From Escherichia coli (lineage in GTDB: Bacteria; Pseudomonadota; Gammaproteobacteria; Enterobacterales; Enterobacteriaceae): 64,000 bases of DNA. Under the pieces are notes generated by a model. That model saw only the letters and a program-made list of their open reading frames with translations, was not told where the DNA came from and did not search any database. The stretch lies in NCBI RefSeq assembly GCF_003334765.1, contig NZ_QOWT01000002.1; one strand, 5' to 3'. The translations under genes were made by a program, and so were the position numbers. Shown here in pieces: positions 47,190-53,608 of this stretch. Positions within the stretch are counted from its first letter, which is position 1; each line of letters starts with the position of its first letter.

Positions 47190-48011
47190 CTACAACTCAT
47201 TCAGTATGTACTGGAACCGGCAAGTAGAATCGATTGGCTGCATACTGCTGGTATCAACACGCACGACCATATCGTGTAACTGTTTGTCCGTTATAGGGTG
47301 TCGATTTGGCGTGACCGAGACTTCCGCCTTGTCACATCCCGACGCGGTAAAAGTTATCATCTGTGCAACCCAGCGGCAGTAACCACCTGTTTCATTCATC
47401 TGCGTACTGTCGCACAACTTCCCATCTTTCATCAAATACGTTGAAAGCGTTTTCTCAACCACACCGCCCGTCGACTGCAGGGTGAGCAGTTTTGACTTAC
47501 TGACATAATTCTCATTCCATGAAACGTCATAAGGTTGAACAGAAACGGATGGACAAATCGTGTCGTGACTATCAGGCCCCTGATACGTCACGCCCCCTGG
47601 AGAGGCTTCAGAGTCATTCATAATAACCAACCATGGACAAGAAAAGTAAGATTCAATCTCTGCAGAGACAATAACCTCAAATGTATAATACCCGCAGTTC
47701 CACCCAGACGGTAATCCAGGACAACTTGCTTTGTTGATATTTTGATGGTAGCCAATCAGCTTAACCGAAGGGGCAGGAGGAGGACCACTCCAGCTCACAT
47801 TTTGCAATATTTCCCCAGTCATGAGCCATTGACTACTTTTATATTCACCAACGTACACTGCGGATGGCATCATTATTTTTAAATTAAAAGTCGCAATATT
47901 ACGCGAATCACCGTTGTAACCGTAGTAAACGTCAACGCTATGCCCGGCAGCCATAGCTTCTGTAGTAGCAATAAGCATGACCAGAGCGAACAACCATCGT
48001 AGTATTTTCAT
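47190..48011 (-). CDS. yfcO: Fimbrial-operon protein YfcO (DUF2544; candidate tip adhesin)
   Basis: ORF matches YfcO; 273 aa from the ATG at 48009-48011; signal peptide; last gene of the yfc fimbrial operon. Confidence 0.9.
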   Translation of the reverse strand: MKILRWLFALVMLIATTEAMAAGHSVDVYYGYNGDSRNIATFNLKIMMPSAVYVGEYKSSQWLMTGEILQNVSWSGPPPAPSVKLIGYHQNINKASCPGLPSGWNCGYYTFEVIVSAEIESYFSCPWLVIMNDSEASPGGVTYQGPDSHDTICPSVSVQPYDVSWNENYVSKSKLLTLQSTGGVVEKTLSTYLMKDGKLCDSTQMNETGGYCRWVAQMITFTASGCDKAEVSVTPNRHPITDKQLHDMVVRVDTSSMQPIDSTCRFQYILNEL

Positions 48012-48012
48012 T

Positions 48013-48552
48013 TTAAATATACTCAAATGTCGCAGTTAAAGAGGCGGTAAATTCACCGATCGTCACATCACGGCCGCTTTTCGCCTGTAGCCAGGCTCTG
48101 AAATTGATATCGTTATTGCCATTGGTTAGCGCAAAGGTCGCCCCATTTGTATTGTTGATGGCAACCTGCATTCCGTCGGTTTTTTCCATGCCAATTCCCA
48201 CTCCCTGAGCGGTTGATGACGTATCCAGTGCCAGAAAACCGGGTTGTTCGCTGTCTTCTACCCCCGTGAGCGTGACTTTTACGTTGTATCCCGCCGGCCC
48301 TTTGCAATCTTTCAGCTTAAAGACTACGGGTACACGAGCGGACTGGCCTGCAACGTTCAAATCCTGACGACTGACCGTGGGAAAGCGCACCTCTGCCAGA
48401 TATTGGCCATCCACCACCAGCGCACAGGATTTACTTAATAAATTACCGGAGAAATGCAGATTATTATCTGCCGCGAATAACGTGCTACTCATTGCCAATA
48501 TCAGCCCCGCTAACAGGACGTAACCACCGGACTGAATCATTGATTTATTCAT
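48013..48552 (-). CDS. yfcP: Fimbrial-like subunit YfcP
   Basis: 179-aa ORF with signal peptide matching YfcP; FimA-like C-terminal beta strand. Confidence 0.92.
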   Translation of the reverse strand: MNKSMIQSGGYVLLAGLILAMSSTLFAADNNLHFSGNLLSKSCALVVDGQYLAEVRFPTVSRQDLNVAGQSARVPVVFKLKDCKGPAGYNVKVTLTGVEDSEQPGFLALDTSSTAQGVGIGMEKTDGMQVAINNTNGATFALTNGNNDINFRAWLQAKSGRDVTIGEFTASLTATFEYI

Positions 48553-52963: not shown

Positions 52964-53044
52964 ACACGTTTTTATCCGTTTTTATTCTTGTTCGGTCAAA
53001 ATCCATTTAAATACCCCATAGCAGTGTCGCTATGGGGGTATGCC

Positions 53045-53608
53045 TTACAGGTAAGTAATCTGGAAGGTGGTATTTGCTTCGAAATTACCCAGATCTGGCG
53101 CATCAGCTGCGCCGACCAGCCAGGCTTTAAAGTTCAGAGTCTGCTTCGCTTTGCCTTTATTAGTGGCAGTATCTTTCACGATTTTCTGGTCAATACCCAT
53201 GCCGCTTTTGTAAGAGGTACCCAGAGAGTCACCGATCGCCAGGCTAACATTGTTAAATGCCGCACCGGTATCGGTATTGAAAATGGTGTAATAATTGCCG
53301 CTATTTGCAGAAGAAACGGTACCAGTAAAGGTAGTGGTCATTGTTTCCTGAGTATCAAATACGCAATCTTGCAGGCGAATCTGGAAATTTTTCGGCGTGG
53401 TGGTGCCGTTATTTTTCAGTTTTTCGGCACCGATATCACCCATATCAACTTCCAGTTTGTGATCGTCCGGAACGATAGAACACACTGAGTCTTCAATGGT
53501 GCCGTAAAAACGTGCAGTACCGTTGTTACCCGCAGCGATTGTTGCCGTAGAGGTGAACGCGCCCATCACCATTGCCGCAGCAATAGCTGTTTTAACAAAC
53601 TTACTCAT
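53045..53608 (-). CDS. yfcV: Major fimbrial subunit YfcV
   Basis: 187-aa ORF with signal peptide matching YfcV; first gene of the operon. Confidence 0.93.
   Translation of the reverse strand: MSKFVKTAIAAAMVMGAFTSTATIAAGNNGTARFYGTIEDSVCSIVPDDHKLEVDMGDIGAEKLKNNGTTTPKNFQIRLQDCVFDTQETMTTTFTGTVSSANSGNYYTIFNTDTGAAFNNVSLAIGDSLGTSYKSGMGIDQKIVKDTATNKGKAKQTLNFKAWLVGAADAPDLGNFEANTTFQITYL

Follow-up and report, generated by a model that had tools for sequence, protein, structure and literature searches.

The window, a 64,000-nt stretch of Escherichia coli DNA (RefSeq assembly GCF_003334765.1, contig NZ_QOWT01000002.1), carries seven same-direction minus-strand open reading frames (ORFs), yfcV-U-S-R-Q-P-O, at 47190-53608 (ORF list of 45500-55500; Table 1). 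Very probably, they make up the chaperone-usher fimbrial operon yfc of the E. coli chromosome, orthologous to Stf, at its usual site between smrB and sixA, in the ancestral, undisrupted state. Databases and literature already cover this operon with its class and core-genome status, as well as the pseudogene of K-12, and the only difference between the operon in the window and that of K-12 strain MG1655 is one base in codon 579 of the usher gene yfcU. An earlier note on this DNA had named the seven co-directional genes, and the ORF list agrees with the identities, order and coordinates it gave, as well as with its reading of the usher as a continuous 881-aa frame, no stop being present within that ORF. 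A 6.8-kb query matched many complete E. coli chromosomes at 100%, with all seven genes annotated by RefSeq as intact coding sequences, including those of the 100%-identical locus of strain ML35; the seven ORFs are therefore real genes rather than chance frames.

The usher gene and the amber codon of K-12

In MG1655 (NC_000913.3), yfcU (b4661, 2646 nt) is flagged as a pseudogene. Compared base by base, the gene in the window and that of MG1655, both of 2646 nt, differ at a single base, gene position 1737, which is C in the former and G in the latter (window 51227, MG1655 coordinate 2453265). Codon 579 (window 51227-51229, minus strand) thereby reads TAC (Tyr) in the window and TAG (amber) in MG1655. 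The yfcU product is otherwise identical to the MG1655 yfcU reading frame (880/881 residues), and yfcV is identical to b2339. The earlier note had given MG1655 a disrupted yfcU, and this was right: b4661 is a pseudogene with TAG at codon 579. On the other hand, a frameshift, the kind of lesion for which the note had proposed an alignment to MG1655, is ruled out by the equal lengths of the two genes and the single nonsense substitution between them, and since MG1655 carries the amber codon, its gene is not the identical, intact copy that the note had also considered. The old annotation that split the gene into yfcT and yfcU, still visible in the literature, reflects this amber stop. A literature search for yfcU as a pseudogene returned only papers on Plasmodium yFCU.

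The protein encoded in the window has the complete three-domain architecture of an usher, with Pfam matches to PapC_N (residues 34-179), Usher (198-759) and PapC_C (770-826). Because YfcU residues 158-675 align with the translocation domain of PapC in the crystal structure 2vqi, the amber codon at 579 falls inside the pore. A stop at this codon cuts the pore domain short and takes away the C-terminal domains, such that K-12 would make an usher that ends within the barrel and is devoid of both. From what is established for PapC and FimD, a truncated usher of this kind should not support assembly.

Tyr579 is kept in the Yfc ushers of O157:H7 and AR_0372 (∼80-90% identical overall), and it aligns with a tyrosine of PapC (full-length alignment to PDB 7lhg chain C). 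This conservation identifies the K-12 amber allele as the derived one. The distribution of the two alleles was followed with 61-mers centred on the single-nucleotide polymorphism (SNP) in 5426 complete E. coli genomes. An exact match to the amber 61-mer was found in 363 of them; seven of eight sampled rows were K-12 or laboratory derivatives, among them MG1655, JM109, ER1709, a Dam/Dcm strain and others whose records call them laboratory-developed, and the eighth (TP6-1) was of unclear origin. Going by these eight, the 363 genomes to which the amber allele is restricted appear to be K-12 or laboratory derivatives. The intact 61-mer of the window had exact matches in 1320 genomes of human, animal and environmental origin, and genomes with neither 61-mer carry more divergent alleles. 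Together, the conservation of Tyr579 and the 61-mer counts point to the intact usher as the ancestral, common wild-type state and to the K-12 lineage as the exception. The earlier note had suggested that the window comes from a strain with a potentially functional Yfc fimbria. The strain difference stands, trivial as it is at one base, yet the intact allele is the common wild type. Beyond such bookkeeping, the window is of little significance, being the ordinary wild-type form of a catalogued operon of which K-12 holds the one-base mutant. What does follow is that conclusions on Yfc based on K-12, including those on unseen fibres, rest on a strain with a truncated usher, which makes K-12 a poor Yfc model.

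This stop appears to have been overlooked in a survey of E. coli fimbriae that scored the yfc cluster as "intact in all genomes", MG1655 included (Wurpel et al. 2013, PMC3559732), because its criteria were insertion sequence (IS) insertions and truncated genes.

Predicted fibre assembly and the presumed tip adhesin YfcO

Were the operon expressed, a strain with the intact allele could assemble Yfc fibres. By the scheme of chaperone-usher systems, subunits would leave the cytoplasm via the Sec system, be captured in the periplasm by the PapD-like YfcS through donor-strand complementation and pass to the YfcU pore, where donor-strand exchange would polymerise them. YfcO would probably enter first, at the tip, and YfcP, YfcQ and YfcR probably next, as adaptors or a tip fibrillum, before YfcV would build the shaft.

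YfcO is covered by the Pfam family PF11245 (DUF2544) over residues 44-273 (5.9e-138; model positions 1-246 of 246), and a protein identical to it is named "fimbrial adhesin YfcO" by NCBI, within a "StfH/YfcO family fimbrial adhesin". No NCBIfam family model matched YfcO, and a search of the PDB sequences gave no match up to E = 1. Its AlphaFold2 model (predicted local distance difference test score, 83.3; predicted template-modelling score, 0.71) comprises two beta-sandwich domains. In an alignment of 42 YfcO alleles, the median identity to the window protein was 29% for residues 23-155 and 69% for residues 156-273, eight cysteines were invariant, and overall identity within Escherichia fell to 42%. 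Adhesins of the FimH and PapG type likewise vary in the N-terminal half, are conserved in the C-terminal half and are encoded last in their operons, and these traits of YfcO would fit a two-domain tip adhesin. The other hallmark of that type, a C-terminal pilin domain homologous to the remaining subunits, was not detected in YfcO.

Studies of relatives bear on this role. Swapping StfH alleles alters the binding of Stf-fimbriated Salmonella to human and bovine cell lines, and the variable part of StfH is its N-terminal half (PMC5343171). Besides, a study of yfcO in avian-pathogenic E. coli (APEC) is reported to have found effects on adherence and colonisation (Li et al. 2016, via PMC8069529). 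The statement in the earlier note that neither the role of YfcO nor the receptor is established is therefore partly out of date, namely for the role, given the adhesin naming, the StfH swaps and the APEC study; for the receptor it stands.

Alternatively, YfcO might be a co-transcribed secreted or periplasmic accessory (an assembly factor, an anchor or an independent surface protein) rather than a pilus-integrated two-domain tip adhesin. We consider this unlikely, in that yfcO comes last in its operon like fimH and papG, its product has a signal peptide, its variable and conserved halves correspond to the lectin and pilin domains found in known adhesins, and exchanging alleles of the Salmonella counterpart StfH alters the specificity with which Stf-fimbriated bacteria bind cells (PMC5343171). 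YfcO/StfH, a widespread presumed adhesin without a solved structure, a recognisable pilin domain or a known receptor, makes a reasonable structural target.

A wider reading, which we hold tentatively as quite possible though short of probable, is that the amber codon would explain why fibres have gone unseen in K-12, that a visible fibre would form in strains whose allele is intact, and that a variable tip of YfcR, YfcQ, YfcP and YfcO would set receptor or host tropism through a novel adhesin fold. If so, the fold of YfcO would be unlike that of any solved fimbrial adhesin. Forced yfc expression in K-12 yielded no detectable fimbriae (Korea et al. 2010, as reported in PMC5343171), and absent fibres in K-12 fit an amber usher. 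However, the same forced expression is reported to have improved binding to T24 bladder cells ∼10-fold (via PMC5343171), which does not fit, since a phenotype of some kind is thus seen despite the amber usher. Neither Wurpel et al. (2013, PMC3559732) nor De Masi et al. (2017, PMC5343171) connects these results to the usher stop. Besides the T24 binding, several further points weigh against the main reading, by which a strain with this operon could assemble Yfc fibres. An open reading frame is no proof of function. Sigma-70-like sites upstream of yfcV were no commoner than in shuffled sequences. A fold search with YfcO found no likeness to any solved fimbrial adhesin, and when the YfcO family was set against the Yfc pilins with hhalign, nothing beyond the signal peptide was similar. 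We infer the place of YfcO at the tip from its gene position, its pattern of variability and the StfH work.

Operon layout, possible expression signals and variation

The operon is tightly packed and has smrB on one side and sixA/fadJ on the other, the same position as in MG1655. On the minus strand, yfcQ and yfcP share an ATGA at 48552-48549, yfcR and yfcQ another at 49037-49034, and yfcS and yfcR overlap by 1 nt (TGATG) at 49546. All three overlaps were as the earlier note had placed them, and its picture of tight packing holds; its statement that most junctions overlap does not, overlaps being found at three of six, i.e. half. The yfcU-yfcS spacer of 19 nt carries an AAGGA Shine-Dalgarno motif, and the 81-nt yfcV-yfcU spacer is the sole non-tight junction in the operon. 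Through the stop/start overlaps, the chaperone and minor-subunit genes would be translationally coupled. At 48026, 15 nt 5' of the yfcO ATG, an in-frame TTG would give a product of 278 aa (47190-48026); from this start yfcO would overlap yfcP by 14 nt, as opposed to a 1-nt gap from the ATG.

Table 1. Features of the yfc locus in the window. The last rows give protein identities between the window, O157:H7 and AR_0372.
Feature	Position	Strand	Description	Protein identity
yfcV	53045-53608	-	187 aa, predicted major pilin	
yfcU	50318-52963	-	881 aa, outer-membrane usher, frame without internal stop	
yfcS	49546-50298	-	250 aa, PapD-like periplasmic chaperone	
yfcR	49034-49546	-	170 aa, minor pilin	
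yfcQ	48549-49037	-	162 aa, minor pilin	
yfcP	48013-48552	-	179 aa, minor pilin	
yfcO	47190-48011	-	273 aa from ATG at 48011 (RefSeq start); DUF2544, presumed tip adhesin	
Stem-loop after yfcV stop	53011-53041	-	GC-rich, core 10-bp stem 53014-53037, then UUUAAAU	
Intergenic sixA-yfcV	53609-54288	-	680 nt, AT-rich, no regulator gene; presumed promoter/regulatory region	
PrmB, SmrB, SixA, FadJ (flanking)				96-100%
YfcU, YfcS				79-90%
YfcV				66-89%
YfcR, YfcQ, YfcP, YfcO				42-66%

The yfcV-yfcU spacer contains a stem-loop. RNA folding of the 101 nt at 52955-53055 gave -31.5 kcal/mol, as compared with -16.3 +/- 2.9 kcal/mol in shuffles (z = -5.2). A scan with the terminator consensus showed no enrichment over shuffles, and it missed this stem-loop because of the weak U-tract. 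By analogy with other fimbrial operons, the element may act as a partial terminator or intercistronic attenuator, or else as an mRNA stabiliser. A stable hairpin at this place could plausibly raise the ratio of major subunit to usher.

Upstream of yfcV, GC content drops to 0.295 at 53600-53999 and 0.393 at 54000-54399, against ∼0.5 in the flanks. Going by this AT-richness, the region is plausibly of the kind silenced by H-NS, and its length and composition would plausibly keep the operon silent when cells are grown in the laboratory. Searched for repeats of an invertible switch like fimS, this region showed only short, chance-level repeats and a sixA-proximal hairpin, and Rfam gave no match on 46000-55500. 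Two GATC sites lie upstream of yfcV, ∼144 nt apart (around 53852-53855 and 53708-53711). The sixA-proximal hairpin, just 3' of the sixA stop, is a perfect 15-nt inverted repeat (AATTATGCCCAATGA / TCATTGGGCATAATT, 7-nt loop) at 54243-54279 and the single long one in the region; it is probably the sixA terminator or an element resembling repetitive extragenic palindromes.

In a megablast search of the 5426 complete genomes with the 6.8-kb query, 4290 carried the locus by megablast alone and 2017 covered at least 80% of the query, many genomes matching the window only across yfcS-yfcU-yfcV. The four distal genes (47190-49546) are hypervariable between E. coli strains, as the graded identities in Table 1 illustrate; the regions compared with this interval were 2152-4481 of locus L003 and 2118-4492 of locus L004. 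That yfc genes are highly diverse at the nucleotide level was described earlier (PMC4850163). IS421 or IS621 insertions were present in some otherwise identical or similar yfc loci (NZ_CP022664.1, NZ_CM173849.1, NZ_CP125885.1), so that yfc is naturally disrupted also by routes other than the K-12 amber codon.

Such insertions, together with the AT-rich upstream region, the lack of a dedicated regulator gene, the unenriched promoter-like sites and the label "cryptic" that yfc has received (PMC3559732), might be taken to mean that the operon is intact on paper but a decaying, permanently silent relic, whose intact usher has no biological consequence. This is very improbable in our judgement. All seven frames are open even in the very divergent O157 and AR_0372 alleles, and the locus is present in most genomes. 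The tip genes are strongly diversified between alleles while the C-terminal half and the eight cysteines of YfcO are conserved, which is a signature of selection rather than of decay. Finally, yfc genes are credited with aiding bladder colonisation, and yfcO with aiding APEC adherence, in the accounts given by PMC5343171 and PMC8069529.

With respect to its origin, the window differs from MG1655 by 11 SNPs and no indels over 59,962 nt (99.98% identity), and by two over the 18,001 nt around the operon, at 51227 and at 56235 in fadJ. At the fadJ position the window has G and MG1655 has T; the nine further SNPs are at 4370, 6579, 7911, 28285, 33295, 35057, 37178, 39370 and 40534. Non-K-12 isolates such as BS74R-D and ML35 were 100% identical to the window in each of its two parts that were tested. 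With 11 differences per ∼60,000 bases, the source of the window is therefore not K-12 but a phylogroup-A strain very closely related to it. The chance that it is K-12 itself after all, with TAC at codon 579 a sequencing error or a laboratory reversion and no natural allele, is negligible despite the near-identity across 60 kb without indels, given the ten additional SNPs scattered over this distance, the several non-K-12 isolates that match in full and the 1320 complete genomes that share the TAC 61-mer.

Relation to Stf fimbriae and P pili

The Yfc type of E. coli, a core-associated chaperone-usher fimbria, is recognised by usher phylogeny and locus position (PMC3559732), and the operon in the window has both the smrB-sixA/fadJ locus and an usher nearly identical to that of MG1655. 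It would also qualify as a classical chaperone-usher system, having a full usher in one frame, an adjacent PapD-like chaperone and predicted pilin subunits. The latter, YfcV, YfcR, YfcQ and YfcP, each have a signal peptide, a cysteine pair and a C-terminal ...Y-x end: YfcV carries Cys43/Cys82 and ends in ...TYL with a penultimate Tyr, YfcR carries Cys47/Cys79, both YfcR and YfcQ end in ...VDYQ, and YfcP carries Cys43/Cys83 and ends in ...FEYI.

The closest solved protein to YfcU is PapC (723.5 bits, YfcU 34-844 to PapC 2-806), FimD reaching ∼263 bits; in NCBIfam, StdB (5.4e2 bits) also scores above FimD. Likewise, YfcS is closest to PapD (202 bits, 9.3e-59, residues 25-245), with FimC at ∼88 bits. 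By these scores YfcU is predicted to group with PapC and not with the FimD-type (gamma) ushers, that is, in the pi clade of chaperone-usher systems, to which yfc has been assigned before (PMC5216030).

The nearest counterpart is the same operon in MG1655 (yfcOPQRSUV, b2332-b2339; yfcU b4661, once split into yfcT/yfcU), which has the same site, the same seven genes and the same lengths, and differs by the one base that gives amber in place of Tyr at usher codon 579. Beyond E. coli, the Stf fimbriae of Salmonella enterica (stfACDEFG and stfH) come closest, and the stf and yfc clusters have been treated as orthologous (PMC5343171). YfcU matches the NCBIfam model PRK15284 over positions 1-881 of 881 at 1886.8 bits (cutoff 972), the only Yfc match to exceed its equivalog cutoff. 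Below their cutoffs, YfcV is best matched by the StfA fimbrial major subunit (3.5e-29), YfcS by the StfD chaperone (2.3e-103), YfcR by StfE (4.6e-43), YfcQ by StfF (1.6e-44) and YfcP by SteF (6.5e-44) and StfG (7e-43). Thus, Yfc proteins match their Stf counterparts best, with Ste close behind, but as matches other than that of the usher stay below the cutoffs, these are related systems and not the same proteins. YfcO is put with StfH by the NCBI family name StfH/YfcO and by the literature. For Stf, the fibres have been made visible and alleles of StfH assayed on cell lines, whereas we came across nothing equivalent for the Yfc of E. coli.

P pili resemble Yfc in that the usher gene precedes the chaperone gene in both pap and yfc, and in that the alignments of PapC and PapD to YfcU and YfcS are far above those of FimD and FimC. 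They differ in regulation and at the tip: yfc is devoid of papI- or papB-type regulator genes and of a PapG-like adhesin, its YfcO being a DUF2544 protein unlike the solved adhesins. Unlike pap, moreover, yfc is a core chromosomal locus and not a pathogenicity island.

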